Below the pieces are notes generated by a model. That model searched no databases and was not told where the DNA came from. It saw nothing but the letters and a program-made list of their open reading frames with translations. Of a DNA stretch of 45,276 nucleotides, positions 9,187 to 17,816 are shown piece after piece. The stretch comes from an uncultured bacterium. Lineage in GTDB: Bacteria; Zhuqueibacterota; QNDG01; DTFT01. Positions within the stretch are counted from its first letter, which is position 1, and the number at the start of each line of letters is the position of its first letter. Location of the stretch: positions 1 to 45,276 of the forward strand of contig CAZNXX010000004.1 of NCBI GenBank assembly GCA_964577095.1, written 5' to 3'. The translations under genes and the position numbers were made by a program.

Positions 9187-9297
9187 AGACATCTGACATT
9201 CGCTCGCTTACCCCGCGGCCCCGCTTCGCGGGATCAAGCTATTATATGTCTTCTTGTTGAAGACAAACCGCGGGGAATGCGCTCGCTGTCAGATTCA
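9187..9297. repeat. Imperfect palindromic element in the rpsP-KH spacer
   Basis: Left arm is ATCTGACA-TTCGCTCGCTTA-CCCCGCGG and right arm is CCGCGGGG-AATGCGCTCGCT-GTCAGAT. The outer and inner blocks are complementary, and both arms carry CGCTCGCT in direct orientation. An inner AGAAGAGACAT / ATGTCTTCTT pairing is also present. Confidence 0.55.
9271..9297 (+). repeat. 27-nt exact repeat, copy A (CGGGGAATGCGCTCGCTGTCAGATTCA)
   Basis: Identical to the reverse complement of 17790-17816. It abuts and overlaps the rpsP stop codon (9295-9297). Confidence 0.85.
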
Positions 9298-9771
9298 GGC
9301 GGCCGGAGCGGAAGCCTGGGGTTCGGCGGGCGCCGCTGCCGGAGCGGCCGCTTCGGGTTTCGCTTCGGGTTTCGCTTCGGCCGCTTTTGCTGCCTTATCC
9401 CTGGCTTTCTTGGAAACGCGGGTTTTCTCTCCCGCGCGTCTGGAGCGGTCGACCTGCACGGCCTCCCACTTCTTCACTTCCTCTTCGATCCGGGTTTCCT
9501 CGAATCCGCGCTTCTTCAGGTTGCGGCGCACCAGAATGCCCTTGTGCTTCAGAAGGCTCCGTACGGTGTCTGAGGGAACCGCGCCCTTGTCGAGCCAGTA
9601 ATTCACTCGCGACTCCTCCACCTTCACGGCTGAGGGATTCGTCAGCGCTTCATAGGTGCCGAGACATTCGAGGTAACGCCCATCGCGCGGGGAGCGCGTA
9701 TCGGTCACCACGATCCGGTAAAACGGACGCTTTTTGCGGCCGAACCGTGTCAAACGGATTTTGACTGACAA
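9295..9771 (-). CDS. rpsP: 30S ribosomal protein S16 with a long Lys/Ala/Glu/Pro-rich C-terminal extension
   Basis: The N-terminal ~80 aa (VKIRLTRFGRKKRPFYRIVVTDTRSPRDGRYLE) are canonical S16. The total of 158 aa ends in AKPEAKPEAAAPAAAPAEPQASAPAA. TTG start with GGAGG 6 nt upstream. Confidence 0.95.
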   Translation of the reverse strand: MSVKIRLTRFGRKKRPFYRIVVTDTRSPRDGRYLECLGTYEALTNPSAVKVEESRVNYWLDKGAVPSDTVRSLLKHKGILVRRNLKKRGFEETRIEEEVKKWEAVQVDRSRRAGEKTRVSKKARDKAAKAAEAKPEAKPEAAAPAAAPAEPQASAPAA

Positions 9772-9835
9772 ACAGTACCTCCTGTTGGTGTGAGACTGCC
9801 TTTTTCAGTGTCAGGGTTTAAACGTCCCGGGTCGC

Positions 9836-11170
9836 TCAGCCGAACGGGAACCTTCCGTGCATTCCGGCAAGCCCCTTTCCCCTGAGTTTTCCCATTCTCT
9901 TCATCATCGTCTGCATCGCCTGAAAATCCCGCAGCAACTGGTTCACGTCCTGCACGCGGGTGCCGCTCCCGGAGGCGATGCGCTTGCGCCTGCTGCCGTC
10001 GATCACATGGGGCTTCCGGCGCTCTTCGATGGTCATGGACATGATGATCGCCTCGATCCGGACGAGGGATTTCTCGTCCGGCGCGGTGTTCACCGGCACC
10101 CGGCCGCGCATGCCGGGCACCATGTCCATCAGCTGCGACAGGGGTCCCATCTTTCGCACCTGCCGGAGCTGATCGACAAAATCCTCCAGCGTGAACCCGC
10201 TGCCGGTGAGCCGCTTCGCGAGTTTCTCCGCCTGCTCCCGGTCGACACTCTCCTGCGCCCGCTCCACCAGCGACACGATGTCGCCCATTCCCAGGATGCG
10301 CGAAGCGAGCCGGTCGGGGTGGAAAACCTCGAGGCCGTCGGTTTTCTCGCCCGTGGACAGGAATTTCACGGGCTTTCCGGTGACCGCGCGGATCGACAGC
10401 GCGGCGCCGCCGCGGCCGTCGCCGTCCATCTTGGTGAGGACGATTCCGTCGAATCCGGGCTGAACCGCGAAGGCCTGCGCGGATTTCACGGCGTCCTGTC
10501 CCGTCATCCCGTCCGCGACGAACAGGATTTCCGAGGGTTTCACCGCAGCTTTGACGGTCGCAATCTCATCCATCATGTCCGCGTCGATGTGCAGACGTCC
10601 CGCGGTGTCGACAATGACCGTGTCGAGGCTTCTCTTTCGCGCCTCGGCAACGGCGCCTGCCGCGATACGATCCGCTGAAAGGCCGGTGGGCGCGTAAACG
10701 GGAAGACCCGCGTCTTCCCCCAGCCGCTTGAGCTGTTCGGCTGCAGCGGGCCTGTGAATGTCGGCCGCGGCGAGCAGTGCCCTTCGGTTGCGTTTCGCCA
10801 GGTGTCGGCCCAGCTTTGCGCAAAACGTGGTCTTGCCGGACCCCTGCAGACCGACCACCAGAACCACGGCCGGCAACGGGCCGTCGAGACGCACCGGAAC
10901 ATGCGCGGTTCCGAGCAAAGCGATCAGCTCGTCATGCACGATCTTGACGAGCATCTGGCCGGGTTGAATGCCGGCTGTCACGTCACGGCCGATCGCTTTG
11001 GCCTTGACGGACGCGATGAACTCGGACGCGACCTTGTAATGAACATCCGCTTCGAGCAGAACACGCCTGATCTCACGGCAGGATTCTTCGATGTTCTGTT
11101 CAGAAAGCTTGCCGGTGGCCCTGATTTTTTTCAGGACACCGTCGAATTTTCGGACAATATCTTCGAACAT
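9836..11170 (-). CDS. ffh: Signal recognition particle protein Ffh
   Basis: 444 aa with GLQGSGKTT P-loop, DTAGR, TKMDGDGRGGAALS, and a Met-rich M domain. No obvious Shine-Dalgarno before the ATG. Confidence 0.97.
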   Translation of the reverse strand: MFEDIVRKFDGVLKKIRATGKLSEQNIEESCREIRRVLLEADVHYKVASEFIASVKAKAIGRDVTAGIQPGQMLVKIVHDELIALLGTAHVPVRLDGPLPAVVLVVGLQGSGKTTFCAKLGRHLAKRNRRALLAAADIHRPAAAEQLKRLGEDAGLPVYAPTGLSADRIAAGAVAEARKRSLDTVIVDTAGRLHIDADMMDEIATVKAAVKPSEILFVADGMTGQDAVKSAQAFAVQPGFDGIVLTKMDGDGRGGAALSIRAVTGKPVKFLSTGEKTDGLEVFHPDRLASRILGMGDIVSLVERAQESVDREQAEKLAKRLTGSGFTLEDFVDQLRQVRKMGPLSQLMDMVPGMRGRVPVNTAPDEKSLVRIEAIIMSMTIEERRKPHVIDGSRRKRIASGSGTRVQDVNQLLRDFQAMQTMMKRMGKLRGKGLAGMHGRFPFG

Positions 11171-11430
11171 AATATGCCAATAAAGCCATGAAATTTAAGG
11201 AAAAAATGCTGGGGATGCAAGGGGTTTTATTGAATTAAAGTCAATCAGGATTAATTATCTAATTTATTGAATATCATTAAATTATCTGCTTCGCCGGTCG
11301 AGATTCAGACGTTTTCCTCCGTCGATTGAGTGATCACCCCCCCTCCCGAAGTGCCCGGTCACGGGAAAAGTATCCAAACGATCACCCTGTATTGGACCGG
11401 TCCGTGGCCCGTGGTACGCTCAGATTCGCG

Positions 11431-12576
11431 TTATATTCGAATACGGACGCGCATGCCGCCCGGAACGTCTTCCCCGGAGGCCAGGATGATGTAGCCTCCC
11501 CCGCTTCCGGAGAAAATCGCGCCCGGATAACGGGCATACGCCCGCAGTTTTTTCTCCTGCTCCTCCGGAACCGCGCGGGGCAGAAGCCGCTTCCAGGCCT
11601 CCAGGTTCATGGACAAGGACCGTCCCAATTGCGAGACATTCCGGTCGCGGATGCCGGACCAGCAGCATTCAGCGGATTCGGCCAGCATCTGCACGCCTTC
11701 CACGGTCACGTTGCGATCCTGGAGGGGATCGTATTGCAGGGGCCGTGATCCGACGGGAATCAGGCGCAGAACGCTTTCCAGCCATCGGGCCGCGTCCGGG
11801 TCCGTGATCGAGTCGATGGCCGCCGGCCAATACCCGCCCTCGTAGTGAAGACGATTGATGCCCGGCATCAGAAGTCCGAGATGGTCCTGGGATCCGGACA
11901 CGTACGGGGAACCGGGCGGATTCTCGGCGCCGAACAGCAGTCTGGCGTTGCGCTCCGGGTCGCCGTCCGGGAAGCGGTCGCCCCAGAGTTCCAGCGCCAC
12001 CTTGCGCGAGCTGGTGCCCATGCCCGAGCGTTCGTTAAAAACGACGGTCGGGAGAATCTGAACGACGATGACCGGTCCGGGGTGCAGTTGGGAAACCCAG
12101 GGCTGGTCCATCCATCCGCCGGCCAGGCAGATGCGGTACGGCAGGCGGAGCTTCAGTTTGACGTCGGAACTTGAACGGGCCGGCAGGCCCTTCTCGGGTA
12201 CCCGGTCGAGGACGATGTACTGCACGCCGTTCTCGCGGCACAAGCGTTCCTTTTCCGGCGTGTGCCCGTCCGAATTCACCACGAAACGGTCCGGTTTCAG
12301 CCGCTTCAGGTCCGGCTCGAAGTCGAGCAGACCCCTGCCGGATCCCAGAATCGCGTCATGGACGTGACGGATTGACCGGACGAGAAACAGGCGTTCGTCC
12401 TGCGTGAAAACCGGCGGCCGGCCCTTCAGAAGACGGATGTTTTCGTCCGTGCCCAATGAGACCGTCAGGCGGCCATAGGCCGACGCCTCATTGAAAAAGG
12501 CGACGTGCCCCGCGTGCAGCAGATCGAAGCATCCGCTGACCAGGACCGTCTTTTCACCCGATTCGTCCCGGTTCAT
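11431..12576 (-). CDS. Fusion of a cytidylyltransferase-fold nucleotidyltransferase and a GHMP-type sugar kinase (fucokinase/HddA-like)
   Basis: N-terminal domain has GCFDLLHAGH. C-terminal domain has NERSGMGTSS (a GHMP phosphate-binding loop of the fucokinase GLGTSS flavour) and SGSGGGYI. ATG 12576 overlaps the upstream stop as ATGA. The track start 12609 is the alternative. Confidence 0.75.
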   Translation of the reverse strand: MNRDESGEKTVLVSGCFDLLHAGHVAFFNEASAYGRLTVSLGTDENIRLLKGRPPVFTQDERLFLVRSIRHVHDAILGSGRGLLDFEPDLKRLKPDRFVVNSDGHTPEKERLCRENGVQYIVLDRVPEKGLPARSSSDVKLKLRLPYRICLAGGWMDQPWVSQLHPGPVIVVQILPTVVFNERSGMGTSSRKVALELWGDRFPDGDPERNARLLFGAENPPGSPYVSGSQDHLGLLMPGINRLHYEGGYWPAAIDSITDPDAARWLESVLRLIPVGSRPLQYDPLQDRNVTVEGVQMLAESAECCWSGIRDRNVSQLGRSLSMNLEAWKRLLPRAVPEEQEKKLRAYARYPGAIFSGSGGGYIILASGEDVPGGMRVRIRI

Positions 12577-13541
12577 TCCCGTCCTTCCGTCATCTGCCGG
12601 AAAATCCACGCGTACGTCTTCTCCAGCCCCTGCTTAAGTGAAATGGAAGGTTCCCAGTTCAGATACCGCCGGATGAGCGTATTGTCGCTGTTCCTTCCGC
12701 GTACGCCCTTGGGAGCGTTGAGGTCGTATTTCCGTTCGAGCTTGATCCCGGCGATCGCCTCCACGAGGTCGACCAGCCCGTTGATGGAGACCATCTCGCT
12801 GGAACCCAGGTTGATCGGTTCCTCGATCGCACTGTTCATGATGTCCACAATGCCCTTCACCCCGTCGTCGATGTACATGAAGCTGCGGGTCTGAAGCCCG
12901 TCGCCCCAGACGGTGATCTCGCGGCTGCCTCCGAGCTTGGCTTGGATGACCTTCCGGCAGATCGCGGCCGGCGCCTTCTCGCGCCCGCCGGTCCACGTGC
13001 CGAAGGGTCCGTAGACGTTGTGGAACCGGGCCATCCGGGTGACCAGGCCGAAATCCTCCCTGAAATGCCGGCACATCCGTTCGCTGAAGAGTTTCTCCCA
13101 TCCATAGCCGTCCTCGGCCATGGCGGGATACGCGTCGGATTCCCGGAGGCCTGGATTGTCCGGATCCATCTGCTTTTCCGCGTTGTACACGCAAGCGGAG
13201 GACGCGAAAAAAAACCGTTTCACGCCCTTTTCCCGGGCCGCCATGAGCAGGTGCGTGTTGATCAGGACGCTGAGCATGCAGGCCGCCTTATGCGTCTCGA
13301 TGAACCCCATCCCGCCCATGTCGGCCGCCAGGTTGTAAACTTCGTCGCAGCCGTCCATCGCGGTGACGCAGTTCTCGCGGATCCGCAGATCCAGGACGCG
13401 GTTCTCCGCTTCGGCTGAACGCTGATACCACTGATTCAGCGGCTTGATGTCCACGGCGCGCACGCGGTGCTGTTTTTTGAGGGCATTGACCAGATGGCCG
13501 CCGATGAATCCTCCGGCCCCCGCCACGAGAATGGTTTTCAT
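12573..13541 (-). CDS. GDP-mannose 3,5-epimerase-like SDR
   Basis: GAGGFIGGH Rossmann motif. The long blocks NLAADMGGMGFI, RFHNVYGPFGTWTGGREKAPAAICRK, WGDGLQTRSF and GVRGRNSDN match my recollection of plant and bacterial GME. Confidence 0.88.
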   Translation of the reverse strand: MKTILVAGAGGFIGGHLVNALKKQHRVRAVDIKPLNQWYQRSAEAENRVLDLRIRENCVTAMDGCDEVYNLAADMGGMGFIETHKAACMLSVLINTHLLMAAREKGVKRFFFASSACVYNAEKQMDPDNPGLRESDAYPAMAEDGYGWEKLFSERMCRHFREDFGLVTRMARFHNVYGPFGTWTGGREKAPAAICRKVIQAKLGGSREITVWGDGLQTRSFMYIDDGVKGIVDIMNSAIEEPINLGSSEMVSINGLVDLVEAIAGIKLERKYDLNAPKGVRGRNSDNTLIRRYLNWEPSISLKQGLEKTYAWIFRQMTEGRE

Positions 13542-13709
13542 GTGTCGTTCTTCCTCTGCTTAAAAAAATGATCATGACTGATCGCCGGACCGGTCCCGCG
13601 ATGCCGCTGTCGGATCGAGACAGTCTCCGGGATTGATCCTCGGTCTCCAACAGCCCGGCACCCGGGGTACCGGCGTTTTGATGAGCGGCCATTGACGCGT
13701 CGCTTCACT

Positions 13710-16229
13710 TCATCTCGTCGTCTCCCGCTGAAAAGCGGGAGGCCTGTCCCGTCCCGTCAATTCATAGGTCCGGCCGGGCGCCGTTTCCATGTCGTACAGG
13801 TACCCTTCGGGAACGGAACGGGGTTCGATGCGGGCGGCTTTTGAAATCAGGGGACGCTTTCCCTCCGGAATCCAGTACAGGGGATTCGGATTCCTGCCCT
13901 TGGCGGCTTTCAGCCGGGTTCCTGGACCGCCTTTCAACGGCGTGCCGGAACGGATCCTGCAGTTACCGCCGAGCGTGGATCGTATGCTCAAACGGGCGAC
14001 ACGCCCCTCCTTCCACTCCATCGACTCGATTTGAAACCCGCCGCGCGCCCTGAGTCCGCTGACATTCCCCTGCGGCCATGCTCCGGGCAGTGCCGGAAGC
14101 ACGTGAATGGCGCCGTCGTCGCTCTGAAGAAGCATCTCCGCGACGCCCGACGTGAAGCCGAAATTCCCGTCAATCTGGAACGGCGGGTGCGCGTCAAACA
14201 GGTTCGGGTAGGTTCCCCCCGATTCGGCGAATCCGCCGCCGACCCTCCGGTTCACGGGCTTGATCTGTTCGATTATGAGCTTGTACGCGTGATCGCCGTC
14301 CAGAAAGTGCGCCCACAGGTTGATTTTCCAGTTCATCGACCAGCCGGTTGAGGGATCCCCGCGTTGCAGCAGGGATGTCCGGCCGGCGTCGAACAGTTCG
14401 GGGGTCCGGTACGGCGATATCTGATTGCCCGGGAACACGCCGTACAGATGGGAAACATGACGATGATGGTCCTCGGGGTTGTCCCAATCCTCGAGCCATT
14501 CCTGAAGCTGGCCGTGCCGGCCGATCTGCATGGGCGGCAGGCGTTCGAGAGTCGATTCGATCTTCCGGACAAATCCCGGATCGGTTTTCAGCAGCCGGGC
14601 GGAACGGGTCGTCGCGGTCAGGAGGTCGAAAACAAGCTGGTTATCGAGCGTGGCGCCTGCCGTGATGGAGTATTGCGGGTGGACGGAGGGGGCGTTCTCC
14701 GGGGAAACGGAGGGGCAGACGACCAGCCATCGATTCGAGGGTTCCTCCGTGAGAAATTCCAGATAGAACTCGGCCGCTCCCTTCAGAATCGGGTAAACCG
14801 AGCGCAGATAGGCGATGTCCCCGCTGAAAAGGTATTTCTGCCAGAGATGCTGGCAGAGCCAGGCCCCGCCGGCCGGCCACATCCCCCAGAACGCCCCGTC
14901 CACCGGGCCGGTGATGCGCCACAGATCGGTGTTGTGATGCGCGACCCACCCGCCGGCGCCGTACAGGGTTTTCGCCGTCTGCCGTCCCGTTTCCGACAGA
15001 TCCCGGACCATTTCAATGAGGGGCTCGGCCATTTCGGGAAGCCCCGTGGTTTCGGCGGGCCAGTAATTCATCTCCGTGTTGATGTTGATCGTGTATTTGC
15101 TGTCCCAGGGAGGATACAATTGATCGTTCCAGAGCCCCTGCAGTGTGGCGGGTTGCCCCCCGGGCTGCGAGGAACTGATCAGGAGATAACGGCCGAATTG
15201 AAACAGGAGAGCCGCCAGGTGCGGATCGGAACCGCGGGCGAAGCGTTCGATGCGGACGTCGGTGGGATTCCGCACGGAATCCGTCACGCCGAGATTCAAC
15301 CGGACCCTTCCGTAGGTCTTCCGGTAGGCCTCGATATGATCGTTGAGCGCGGCCGCGTAATCCTTTTCCGCGGACCGGATGAGCGGCTCCCCGGCTCTCC
15401 GGAGCGGGTCGCCGCTGATGTCGTCGTACCGGATGAAGCTGGAGGCGATGGACACGGTGATCAGCGCAGCGTCGGCGTGACGGACAAATATCGCCCCCTC
15501 TTCCGCGTCCCGTTCGCCACCATCGGACGCGACCCTAACCGCGGCTGCGAACCGGACCTTCCCTCGAATGCCCTCGCAGTCTCCCGACGTTCCGGACAGA
15601 ACGATCCGATCCGGATCTTCGGTCGACACATCGAAAGCCGCGGGCCGGTCCATGGAAACCGCGAAATTCAACTGACCGGGCCGGTCCGCGGTGATCCGGA
15701 TGAAAATAACCTGATCCGCGAATGAGGCGAAGACCTCCCGCGTGAAGGTCACCTCCCCCAGCCGGTAGCGCGTGGTCGCGACCGCCCGTTCCAGATCGAG
15801 TTCACGCCTGTAACCCGACGCCCGTTCATGCCCGGGAAAGGAGAGAACCAGGTCCCCGACGGTCTGATACGGCATGCCGTGAGCGGTTTTTGAAATCATT
15901 TTTTCGTTGACCAGCGCCTGCGCGGCGCCGGGATCTCCGCTGAAGATCAGGCGGCGGACTTCCGGAAGCGCCTGGAGCGCGTCCGGATTGTCATTGCGCC
16001 AGGGTTCACCGGCCCAGACCGTGCCTTCATTCAGCTGGATGCGCTCATGCGAAGGATCCCCGAAGACCATGGCGCCCAGCCGCCCGTTTCCCAGGGGCAG
16101 GGCCTCGGTCCAGACGCGGGCCGGTTCATCGTACCACAACATGAATGGCGCCTCGGACCGGTTCGGGTCCGCCGAGGCCGCGGCTGACAGCAAAAAGAGG
16201 ATCCCGGTCGCGAAAACCCGCCTTTTCAT
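13710..16229 (-). CDS. Glycoside hydrolase family 95 (alpha-L-fucosidase / alpha-L-galactosidase type), secreted
   Basis: 839 aa with a signal peptide. The N-terminal LWYDEPARVWTEALPLGNGRLGAMVFG...IQLNEGTVWAG block and the size are typical of GH95. Confidence 0.88.
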   Translation of the reverse strand: MKRRVFATGILFLLSAAASADPNRSEAPFMLWYDEPARVWTEALPLGNGRLGAMVFGDPSHERIQLNEGTVWAGEPWRNDNPDALQALPEVRRLIFSGDPGAAQALVNEKMISKTAHGMPYQTVGDLVLSFPGHERASGYRRELDLERAVATTRYRLGEVTFTREVFASFADQVIFIRITADRPGQLNFAVSMDRPAAFDVSTEDPDRIVLSGTSGDCEGIRGKVRFAAAVRVASDGGERDAEEGAIFVRHADAALITVSIASSFIRYDDISGDPLRRAGEPLIRSAEKDYAAALNDHIEAYRKTYGRVRLNLGVTDSVRNPTDVRIERFARGSDPHLAALLFQFGRYLLISSSQPGGQPATLQGLWNDQLYPPWDSKYTININTEMNYWPAETTGLPEMAEPLIEMVRDLSETGRQTAKTLYGAGGWVAHHNTDLWRITGPVDGAFWGMWPAGGAWLCQHLWQKYLFSGDIAYLRSVYPILKGAAEFYLEFLTEEPSNRWLVVCPSVSPENAPSVHPQYSITAGATLDNQLVFDLLTATTRSARLLKTDPGFVRKIESTLERLPPMQIGRHGQLQEWLEDWDNPEDHHRHVSHLYGVFPGNQISPYRTPELFDAGRTSLLQRGDPSTGWSMNWKINLWAHFLDGDHAYKLIIEQIKPVNRRVGGGFAESGGTYPNLFDAHPPFQIDGNFGFTSGVAEMLLQSDDGAIHVLPALPGAWPQGNVSGLRARGGFQIESMEWKEGRVARLSIRSTLGGNCRIRSGTPLKGGPGTRLKAAKGRNPNPLYWIPEGKRPLISKAARIEPRSVPEGYLYDMETAPGRTYELTGRDRPPAFQRETTR

Positions 16230-16257
16230 GATTCACTCCCTTTCGTGTATTCGGAAA

Positions 16258-17277
16258 TCAGGACGGTTCCGGAACTTGGAGCGATTCTCCGATTTCGATT
16301 TCCGAATCGATCCGGACCATCGTTCTGAATCCCTTCTCTCCTCGGATGCATTTCAGCATCATCTCCATCGCTTTCAATCCGAGTTGATATGGATCCACAT
16401 TGATAATGGTCATGGAGGGAGACGGAATTTGGGCGAATTCGTGGTGGCCGAAAGCGACGACCCCGACGTCATCCGGTATTCTCAATCCCCTTTCACGGAT
16501 GGCGTCATACACGCCGAGCGCGATTCGATCATTTGCCGCGAAAATGACTTCAGGTTTATCCCGGCCCGTCCAGAGTTTCCCGAATCCGGCGATTCCGTCC
16601 TTTCGTTCAAAACCGCCTTCCGCAATCCACTCTTTCCGGACCGGCAATCCATGATCCTTCAATGAATCCAGATACCCGTCGAGACGGTCGCGGCCGATCC
16701 GAACAAGGGAAGATCCGGCCAAATGACCGATTTTACGGTACCCGCAACGGATCACGAAATCGACGAGCTTTTTCGCCGCGCCCCGGTCGTCGATTCCGAC
16801 GAATCCCGAACCCTGATTCTCCAGGATACGGTCGAAAAATATCAACGGCACATCCGAAAGTTTCACTTTCTGATAGATCGCGGCGTCCGGCGTTTCCTTC
16901 GAAACCGCGATCAGCAGTCCGTCGACCCTCATGGAAAGCAGATTGAGAATGTTTTTCCTCTCGATTTCGCTCTTCTCCCGGGAAACGGCCAGAATCACAT
17001 GGTATCCGGAACGGACGGCGGCGTCCATGATGCCGTCGACCGCGTAGGAGAAAAACGAATTCGAGATATCGGGCACGACGACGCCGACGGTCATGGATTT
17101 GCGGGAATGAAGCCCCCGGGCGTGATAATGCGGAATGTAATTCAGTTTTTCAGCGAGCTCACGGACGCGGTGTTTCATGTCGTCCGAAATATCCGAATCA
17201 CCCTTGAGCGCTTTTGAAACCGTGGCCCGGCTGACTTTCAATTTACGGGCGATTTCGGATTGATTGATGATGGGCAT
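16258..17277 (-). CDS. LacI-family transcriptional regulator
   Basis: N-terminal HTH (INQSEIARKLKVSRATVSKALKG) and a periplasmic-binding-fold body. The track start is TTG 17307. ATG 17277 gives the usual short lead-in to the HTH. Confidence 0.9.
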   Translation of the reverse strand: MPIINQSEIARKLKVSRATVSKALKGDSDISDDMKHRVRELAEKLNYIPHYHARGLHSRKSMTVGVVVPDISNSFFSYAVDGIMDAAVRSGYHVILAVSREKSEIERKNILNLLSMRVDGLLIAVSKETPDAAIYQKVKLSDVPLIFFDRILENQGSGFVGIDDRGAAKKLVDFVIRCGYRKIGHLAGSSLVRIGRDRLDGYLDSLKDHGLPVRKEWIAEGGFERKDGIAGFGKLWTGRDKPEVIFAANDRIALGVYDAIRERGLRIPDDVGVVAFGHHEFAQIPSPSMTIINVDPYQLGLKAMEMMLKCIRGEKGFRTMVRIDSEIEIGESLQVPEPS

Positions 17278-17377
17278 TGACTTACTCGTGTAAGTAGAAT
17301 TATCCAATTTTACCCTATTTAACCGCCAATGTCAAGTATTTTCTCGTTGCCGTTCAGAAAACATCGGATGTCCGGCT

Positions 17378-17776
17378 TCATTCGACGGGCCCCCCGCAAT
17401 CCTCCATACTGTAAATTCGCTCCGTCAATCTCCATTTCTCTCCCGCCGTGGCATCGGCGGATGCAGCCTGGAACCGCGACATCCTCTCCTCCCATTCCGC
17501 CTGCCTGGGCTTTCCCGCAAGTTCGGCCATGGCGCGGTCATGGTCGAAATCGGGGACCGTGTCCATGATCATGAACAACCGGGTTCCGTCCCTGTAGATC
17601 TGCATGTCGAGGATGCCGACTTCCCGCATCCCGGCAGCGATTTCGGGCCAGCAGGCTCCGGGCGCATGGGCGTCTTTGTACTCCTGCATCAACGCCGGAT
17701 CGTCTTTCAATTGAAGGGTCTTGCAGTACCGTTTGATTCTGCGAAACGCCGGCGAAGAATGATTCGGATCGATCAT
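17378..17776 (-). CDS. L-rhamnose mutarotase family protein (RhaM/YiiL-like; context suggests L-fucose or L-galactose)
   Basis: 132 aa beginning MIDPNHSS...KRYCKTLQLKDDPALMQEYKDAHA...WPEI. ATG 17776 has GGAGA upstream. The 222-aa track ORF is an unsupported 5' extension that overlaps the ABC gene. Confidence 0.85.
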   Translation of the reverse strand: MIDPNHSSPAFRRIKRYCKTLQLKDDPALMQEYKDAHAPGACWPEIAAGMREVGILDMQIYRDGTRLFMIMDTVPDFDHDRAMAELAGKPRQAEWEERMSRFQAASADATAGEKWRLTERIYSMEDCGGPVE

Positions 17777-17789
17777 GATCGTCTCCTCT

Positions 17790-17816
17790 TGAATCTGACA
17801 GCGAGCGCATTCCCCG
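17790..17816 (-). repeat. 27-nt exact repeat, copy B (inverted relative to 9271-9297)
   Basis: TGAATCTGACAGCGAGCGCATTCCCCG on the plus strand. It lies 14-40 nt upstream of the mutarotase ATG, adjacent to its Shine-Dalgarno. Confidence 0.85.

Follow-up and report, generated by a model that had tools for sequence, protein, structure and literature searches.

Which sugar is activated, with which nucleotide and in which metabolic direction, is the question raised by a gene cluster in a 45,276-nucleotide stretch of DNA, hereafter the window, from an uncultured bacterium of the Zhuqueibacterota (assembly GCA_964577095.1, contig CAZNXX010000004.1). Five genes, all on the minus strand between positions 11431 and 17776, encode in this order a RhaM-type mutarotase, a LacI regulator, a GH95 glycosidase, a homologue of the epimerase GME (GDP-mannose 3,5-epimerase) and a protein in which a nucleotidyltransferase is fused to a kinase; the order and the single strand are as described in a first-pass annotation of this DNA. 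The same annotation had proposed that the fusion activates L-fucose or L-galactose in the manner of Fkp without being orthologous to it, a proposal supported in silico by the fold of the protein, by a kinase profile that places Fkp first and by the conservation of sugar-contact residues. The fusion is probably a non-orthologous analogue of Fkp. That it makes GDP-L-galactose (or GDP-L-fucose), and that GME turns GDP-L-galactose into GDP-mannose in a Leloir-like route for L-galactose, is in our judgement finely balanced. The broader reading, of a widespread and horizontally spread module for GDP-linked, Leloir-like L-galactose catabolism, comprising a mutarotase, a compact kinase plus HxGH guanylyltransferase and a plant-type GME working in reverse, is offered tentatively and placed slightly short of even. 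These readings rest on what the analysis established, namely the folds, the motifs, the conserved sugar contacts, the order of the genes and their ties to genes of GDP-sugar metabolism.

The fusion protein

The fusion (381 amino acids; 11431-12576, minus strand) carries the motifs CFDLLHAGH at residues 16-24 and SGMGTSS at residues 184-190. Its N-terminal part (residues ~9-125; 12202-12552, minus strand) is an HxGH nucleotidyltransferase domain, matched by the Pfam family CTP_transf_like with an E-value of 6.9e-11 (PF01467; residues 24-151 of the long open reading frame (ORF), 42.9 bits against a cut-off of 21). The C-terminal 238 residues matched nothing in Pfam, even at E 10, or in single-sequence PDB searches. 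An AlphaFold model of the fusion, made from 26 homologues, had a mean predicted local distance difference test (pLDDT) score of 81.7, with values mostly of 85-98 in the C-terminal domain. Foldseek returned HldC (5xf2), TagD (2b7l) and the Fom1 cytidylyltransferase (5x3d) as best matches of the N-terminal domain, in agreement with the cytidylyltransferase fold previously assigned to it. The C-terminal domain matched GHMP kinases, led by the heptokinase WcbL (4usk), Fkp (9iip and 9iit) and 3k85, the probability being 1.00 for 4usk, 9iip and 3k85 as well as for mevalonate kinases. When a profile built from 40 diverse kinase domains was searched against PDB, Fkp ranked first (E 1.1e-15 for 9iip and 1e-14 for 5yys), followed by heptokinase 3k85 (5.6e-9), WcbL 4usk (2.8e-6) and mevalonate kinases (~1e-5), while galactokinases were not significant (above 0.5). 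This ranking bears out the fucokinase-like character claimed for the domain; a preference for HddA or galactokinases over fucokinase was not found. The C-terminal half is thus identified by AlphaFold plus Foldseek and by the family profile, where Pfam and single-sequence searches are blind, as a compact GHMP sugar-1-kinase domain (residues ~144-381; 11434-12147, minus strand).

The GHMP motifs are invariant or nearly so among the 26 homologues. Motif I (R-x-D/C-L-A-G-G-W-x-D) is RICLAGGWMDQP at residues 148-159, motif II is RSGMGTSS (183-190) and motif III is SGSGGGY (356-362). The stretch between motifs I and II is only 26 residues long, where Fkp has ~110, making this a compact kinase domain. 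In the N-terminal domain, H21, G23 and H24 of the HxGH motif and S136, S137 and K140 of the S-S-S/T-x-x-K/R motif are invariant in the same homologues, so that nothing suggests that this domain is inactive.

Fkp accepts L-fucose, L-galactose and D-arabinose, and the roles of its active site residues have been described from its structure (2025; PMC11982464). In a profile alignment six of its seven fucose-contact residues are kept in the fusion family: R592 (leaving-group stabilisation; R148 in the family), W599 (stacking on C4-C5-C6; W155), D601 (binding of O3 and O4; D157), G759 (backbone contact; G228), Q761 (O4 binding; Q230) and D762 (general base and O2 binding; D231, in GSQD). The sole changed position is T602, which is Q158 in the family. 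E218 lies at the expected place of Fkp E751, and S189 and S190 lie at the P-loop serines. The Fkp-aligned residues of the family are invariant across the 26 homologues. The conservation of these contacts indicates a pocket that reads the L-galacto configuration, as found in L-fucose, L-galactose or D-arabinose, and the C-terminal domain would be expected to phosphorylate the anomeric hydroxyl of L-fucose or L-galactose.

The epimerase

The gene preceding the fusion (12573-13541, minus strand) had been described as a close GME look-alike. The encoded protein matches Arabidopsis GME (2c59) with an E-value of 3.1e-96 over residues 4-318, while the next, unrelated short-chain dehydrogenases/reductases (SDRs) follow at ~1e-27. 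The extended-SDR residues are kept relative to 2c59: the S143/Y174/K178 triad, the C145/K217 acid-base pair, N203, R243 and R306 (the chain numbering of 2c59 runs two above the residue numbering; residue roles were taken from a GME review). An NCBIfam search with this protein matched no GME model, the best match being Fcl, far under its cut-off. Being a full-length homologue of 2c59 with every named catalytic residue, it is on sequence grounds a true GME homologue, beyond a mere look-alike, and would interconvert GDP-mannose and GDP-L-galactose. The start codon of the fusion overlaps the stop codon of the GME homologue as ATGA, as had been noted and as read directly from the letters at 12576-12573.

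Methylacidiphilum is the only source of a characterised bacterial GME, which was assigned to lipopolysaccharide (LPS) synthesis (PMC8787198, PMC6678494). From 100 g/L GDP-mannose about 15 g/L GDP-L-galactose and 5 g/L GDP-L-gulose were obtained with GME (PMC6678494). The equilibrium thus lies at ~80:15:5 toward GDP-mannose, and conversion of L-galactose to mannose is therefore the downhill direction. Translational coupling of GME to the kinase/nucleotidyltransferase in a regulated glycosidase locus likewise implies the reverse direction, either in catabolism or in salvage.

Distribution and gene neighbourhood

The fusion family comprises more than 4,600 database matches at E <= 0.001, and matches with a source name are annotated only as 'cytidyltransferase-like' or 'FAD synthase'. 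The closest proteins outside the lineage, 57-68 % identical, come from metagenome-assembled genomes labelled Bacteroidales, Ignavibacteria, Calditrichaceae, Chloroflexota and Planctomycetota. Within the order the gene was detected in 12 of 31 genomes, a patchy distribution. A GME homologue, 70-95 % identical to that of the window, lies directly upstream (~1 kb) on the same strand in 80 of 85 loci examined, which span several phyla and include the genera Prolixibacter, Mariniphaga, Melioribacter and Sunxiuqinia; this strongly conserved gene order backs the functional link that had been claimed between the genes of the module. Unbiased clustering of all adjacent ORFs in the 85 loci found GME in 77 loci, GH29 in 41, LacI in 38, GDSL esterase in 18, major facilitator superfamily (MFS) transporter in 17, GH95 in 17, AP_endonuc_2 in 16, Amidohydro_2 in 14, GH31 in 10, GH51 in 9, GH27 in 9 and GH2 in 8. 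RhaM adjoins the fusion in 14-16 loci (14 in this census), and a GH29 neighbour was counted in 41-43 (41 in this census). No glycosyltransferase or flippase family ranks in the 20 most frequent neighbour families (18 of them identified). The GME-linked loci would serve to remove side chains from plant hemicellulose, probably under the control of LacI, and the window holds a GH95-headed version of the module.

A link to GDP-sugars, also claimed earlier, is provided by a paralogue in the same genome. This protein (G000:C123; L091:1382-4719, minus strand) is 47 % identical to the fusion, and its gene is located immediately upstream of gmd (562 bits with TIGR01472, above the NCBIfam cut-off), fcl (483 bits, slightly short of its cut-off of 500) and a gene for a Wzz chain-length protein. 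The paralogue locus is a GDP-L-fucose biosynthesis or salvage locus. In a quick tree the GME-linked proteins formed one tight, short-branched clade (Shimodaira-Hasegawa-like approximate likelihood ratio test (SH-aLRT) support 97), and the paralogue was placed elsewhere, among members with a biosynthetic context. Fused forms also occur: a RhaM-nucleotidyltransferase-kinase triple fusion (P0136), which ties the mutarotase to the family, a GDP-mannose 4,6-dehydratase (GMD)-kinase fusion (P0177), a GT2-kinase fusion (P0149) and a PNP_UDP_1 phosphorylase-nucleotidyltransferase-kinase fusion (P0152). In addition, there are stand-alone forms of the compact kinase of ~240 amino acids. A distant member (P0218) has GT11, the alpha-1,2-fucosyltransferase family, and GT6 as neighbours; other distant members adjoin GT2, Polysacc_synt or GT7C genes. 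The GME, gmd, fcl, GMD fusion and GT11 contexts together point to GDP-L-fucose or GDP-L-galactose as product of the family. The suggestion of GTP as substrate comes from these GDP-sugar partners, while characterised relatives of the N-terminal domain use CTP or ATP.

Some distant members are located on phage-like contigs (L094:3994-7143; L092:45-5923). On one, the gene follows GT11 and GT6 genes near large RNA-polymerase-like genes, and on another its neighbourhood includes a baseplate gene (GPW_gp25) together with Collar and peptidase C1 genes, which suggests a phage-encoded supply of GDP-fucose for glycan modification. One contig (CAVPSX010000021.1; L025 and L028) carries two divergent Amidohydro_2-GME-fusion copies ~7-9 kb apart, as if the module had been duplicated in inverted orientation. 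Bacterial-type copies, 57 % identical, were found on contigs binned as archaeal, one labelled Bathyarchaeota (L070) and one labelled Methanoregula (L002; with GME and LacI); these may represent either binning error or cross-domain transfer. In the closest relatives (L005:5338-6963; also L006 and L007) a 541-amino acid ORF without Pfam match lies between GH95 and GME and a PorV-like gene lies upstream of GH95. The window lacks this ORF, its GH95-GME gap being 168 nucleotides.

The glycosidases

The GH95 enzyme of the window (13710-16229, minus strand) is a predicted secreted alpha-L-fucosidase/alpha-L-galactosidase. Its N-terminal, catalytic (E 9e-177) and C-terminal GH95 domains were all matched in Pfam and a signal-peptide-like sequence is present at the N-terminus, consistent with the secretion proposed before. 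The top PDB match is 4UFC, the alpha-L-galactosidase of B. ovatus (E 1.2e-270), and the sequence YTININ, with the catalytic Asn-x-Asn, aligns with N372 and N374 of that enzyme. The nearest solved structure to the GH29 enzymes of the module type is the exo-alpha-L-galactosidase BpGH29 (7ljj; E 5e-91), the next different protein following at E 1.7e-57. The genome itself encodes three GH95 and two GH29 enzymes and a ManC; searches of this genome for FucI and for a cog3618-type (Amidohydro_2) lactonase found neither.

Organisation of the cluster

The LacI-family regulator (16258-17277, minus strand; ATG at 17277) was identified by the Pfam families LacI and Peripla_BP_1/3 and probably controls the module. 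A sigma-70-like promoter, TTGACA-17-TAAAAT, with 11 of 12 consensus matches, lies 5' of its gene (17307-17335, minus strand; a consensus match only). The palindrome CTTAC-N4-GTAAG (17281-17294, minus strand; likewise a consensus match only), which follows the -10 box and precedes the start of LacI, occurs as a single copy in the window. As at least one match was also found in 17 of 100 shuffled sequences, it is a weak candidate LacI operator. The RhaM-family mutarotase (132 amino acids; 17378-17776, minus strand; Pfam rhaM, E 1.4e-26) starts at an ATG at 17776 that is preceded by a GAGGAG Shine-Dalgarno sequence; the ORF finder extends the frame to 18046, and the Pfam match is confined to the last ~110 residues.

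Exact inverted repeats of 27 nucleotides flank an 8.5-kb segment (9271-17816). The idea that they delimit a segment that is mobile or can invert was rejected, the element being dispersed and the gene order being kept. Its 26-nucleotide core, GAATCTGACAGCGAGCGCATTCCCCG, with window copies at 9271-9296 and 17791-17816, has 44 copies in the genome (3.5 Mb) when up to 3 mismatches are allowed, 8 of them exact, while a control pattern gave none. Close relatives retain the order GH95-GME-fusion-ffh-rpsP. The element looks REP-like and unlike a mobile-element boundary.

Proposed pathway and alternatives

In the proposed route the secreted GH95 enzyme would free L-galactose or L-fucose from plant-type glycans. 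The sugar would be imported by a transporter encoded outside this cluster, and the RhaM-type mutarotase would equilibrate its anomers. With ATP, the GHMP domain would phosphorylate beta-L-galactose or beta-L-fucose at C1, and the HxGH domain would couple the sugar-1-phosphate to a nucleoside triphosphate, probably GTP, to give GDP-L-galactose. The translationally coupled GME would then convert GDP-L-galactose to GDP-D-mannose, the direction favoured by the equilibrium. Finally, the housekeeping mannose-1-phosphate guanylyltransferase could return GDP-mannose to the hexose-phosphate pool, or GDP-mannose could be used for glycans. We infer each of these activities, and equally that GTP is the nucleotide used, that L-galactose rather than L-fucose is the substrate and that the route runs catabolically. 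From the chemistry, a 3,5-epimerase acting on GDP-L-galactose would yield GDP-mannose, a central metabolite, and acting on GDP-L-fucose it would yield GDP-D-rhamnose, for which we know of no catabolic route. For the GME-linked clade, L-galactose and the catabolic direction are favoured by this chemistry, the GME equilibrium, the proximity of GH95 to 4UFC and of GH29 to BpGH29, and the inventory of the genome.

Several points weigh against this route. The relatives of the N-terminal domain (ECT, TagD, Fom1 and HldC) use CTP or ATP, and we know of no GTP-using member of the HxGH cytidylyltransferase fold. The genome, at 96.7 % completeness, yielded no type-I mannose-6-phosphate isomerase (ManA), and the final step to fructose 6-phosphate is therefore putative. 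Glycans of this kind contain L-fucose more commonly than L-galactose. Two residues considered as specificity markers proved non-diagnostic and were rejected: in GH95, Thr (versus His) at position 370, which the window enzyme shares with the L-galactosidase, is also found in the fucose-specific XacAfc95, and Asp327 of GH29 is also found in the fucosidase 4ni3. The cluster in the window contains no transporter gene, and the mutarotase gene, being upstream of the predicted LacI promoter, may belong to a separate transcript. Furthermore, Amuc_1591 of Akkermansia, described with the same architecture, has been linked genetically to L-fucose and D-arabinose and to envelope synthesis.

The alternative that survives best, though we consider it unlikely, is anabolic salvage, in which the fusion would make GDP-L-fucose from scavenged L-fucose for surface glycans, as does Fkp of Bacteroides and as proposed for Amuc_1591, and GME would work forward to GDP-L-galactose or GDP-L-gulose destined for those glycans as well. 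The gmd-fcl-wzz paralogue and the distant relatives beside GT11, GT6, GT2 and Polysacc_synt are clearly biosynthetic, the Akkermansia genetics agrees, and the roles assigned to date to bacterial GME lie in the synthesis of LPS or antibiotics. However, the GME-linked clade is separate and tight, its neighbours are glycosidases, LacI regulators, transporters and mutarotases with no glycosyltransferase or flippase in the 20 commonest families (18 identified), and a biosynthetic locus elsewhere in this genome already holds a second copy. Less probable still, and in our view quite doubtful, is that another nucleotide is used, the fusion making CDP- or ADP-linked L-galactose or L-fucose and the GME-like enzyme having switched to match. 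The CTP or ATP dependence of the nearest N-domain relatives, by sequence and by fold, agrees with this, but the epimerase matches the GDP-specific plant GME (E 3e-96) with catalytic and diphosphate-binding residues kept, and the family is repeatedly tied to gmd, fcl, a GMD fusion and GT11. The alternative that the annotation had itself raised, an HldE-like kinase/adenylyltransferase for heptose or another sugar phosphate, was rejected as highly improbable. In its favour, rfaE domain II is the best NCBIfam match of the N-terminal domain, though at 52 bits it falls far below the cut-off of 181, and two heptokinases, WcbL and 3k85, were returned as structural neighbours. Against it, HldE identity (NF008454) scored 46.6 bits against 521 with only the nucleotidyltransferase part matched and a kinase that is GHMP and not PfkB, Fkp fucokinase (1e-15) comes well ahead of the heptokinases (6e-9 to 3e-6) in the profile ranking, the Trp and Asp of GGWxD, fucose contacts in Fkp, are invariant in the family where 3k85 has GGGSD, and heptose/LPS-core genes are absent from the neighbours of the 85 loci.

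A description of a bacterial catabolic route based on GDP-L-galactose was not found in the literature. If GDP-linked L-galactose catabolism is indeed what the module performs, a function would be named for more than 4,600 proteins, of which those with a source name now carry uninformative annotations. Bacterial GME, found so far in anabolic contexts only, would gain a catabolic role in sugar use, and a second, phosphorylative L-galactose route would stand beside the single known oxidative one, with a bearing on how complex xylans, xyloglucans, pectins and algal galactans are broken down in soils, peat, sediments and guts. Among sugar-1-phosphate nucleotidyltransferases with the cytidylyltransferase fold, the HxGH domain would be the first to use GTP. 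An enzyme of 381 amino acids, under half as large as Fkp, that turns the free sugar into GDP-L-galactose or GDP-L-fucose would moreover be useful in chemoenzymatic glycan synthesis.

Comparison with known systems

Like the fusion, Fkp combines a GHMP sugar-1-kinase and a sugar-1-phosphate nucleotidyltransferase in one polypeptide, and the two kinases are homologous (E 1e-15), with catalytic and sugar-contact residues in common. The domain order is reversed, however, and Fkp has 949 amino acids against 381. Its pyrophosphorylase has the NTP_transferase/beta-helix fold (~500 amino acids), whereas the fusion has the HxGH cytidylyltransferase fold (~125 amino acids), and ~85 residues between GHMP motifs I and II of Fkp are missing in the fusion. 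Fkp is not coupled to GME, unlike the clade of the window. As its sole non-kinase domain is a CTP_transf_like domain of ~125 amino acids, the fusion is no member of the Fkp family, though it probably works alike.

Suppressor mutations in Amuc_1591 of Akkermansia muciniphila, a putative 'fucose-nucleotidyltransferase', make the bacterium resistant to D-arabinose, and growth is restored by L-fucose (Lakey et al., Gut Microbes 2026, PMC13313206). With an N-terminal adenylyl/cytidylyltransferase and a C-terminal fucokinase-like domain (modelled on 9IIP), it resembles the fusion by description only; no Akkermansia member was present in the Atlas search or the cluster names of the fusion family. Unlike the fusion, it shares a transcription unit with murJ, was proposed to act in envelope biosynthesis and is mentioned with no GME partner. 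HldE also joins a kinase to a nucleotidyltransferase of the cytidylyltransferase fold, but its kinase is N-terminal and of the PfkB/ribokinase type, its substrates are heptose phosphates and its context is the LPS core.

The epimerase is like the plant and Methylacidiphilum GME enzymes (2c59, 8sg0; PMC8787198, PMC6678494) in being full-length with catalytic residues kept. The known roles of GME are anabolic (ascorbate, cell wall, LPS and antibiotics), whereas the gene of the window is located in a regulated glycosidase locus.

For Bacteroides vulgatus, Hobbs and co-workers reportedly described in 2014 an oxidative L-galactose pathway consisting of an L-galactose dehydrogenase, a cog3618 lactonase and an L-galactonate dehydrogenase. 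That pathway and the proposed module have in common the bacterial use of L-galactose released from glycans, but the former is non-phosphorylative and proceeds without a nucleotide sugar. Some Bacteroidales loci among the 85 carry an Amidohydro_2 lactonase beside the module, unlike the genome of the window. A parallel in layout is the Leloir pathway for D-galactose with its pyrophosphorylase variant (GalM, GalK, GalT/USP and GalE), which likewise consists of a mutarotase, an anomeric kinase, a nucleotide activation step and an SDR epimerase that turns an uncommon nucleotide sugar into a common one. The module of the window would assemble the same steps from other enzyme families, with GDP in place of UDP and a 3,5-double epimerisation in place of a 4-epimerisation, acting on L-galactose instead of D-galactose.

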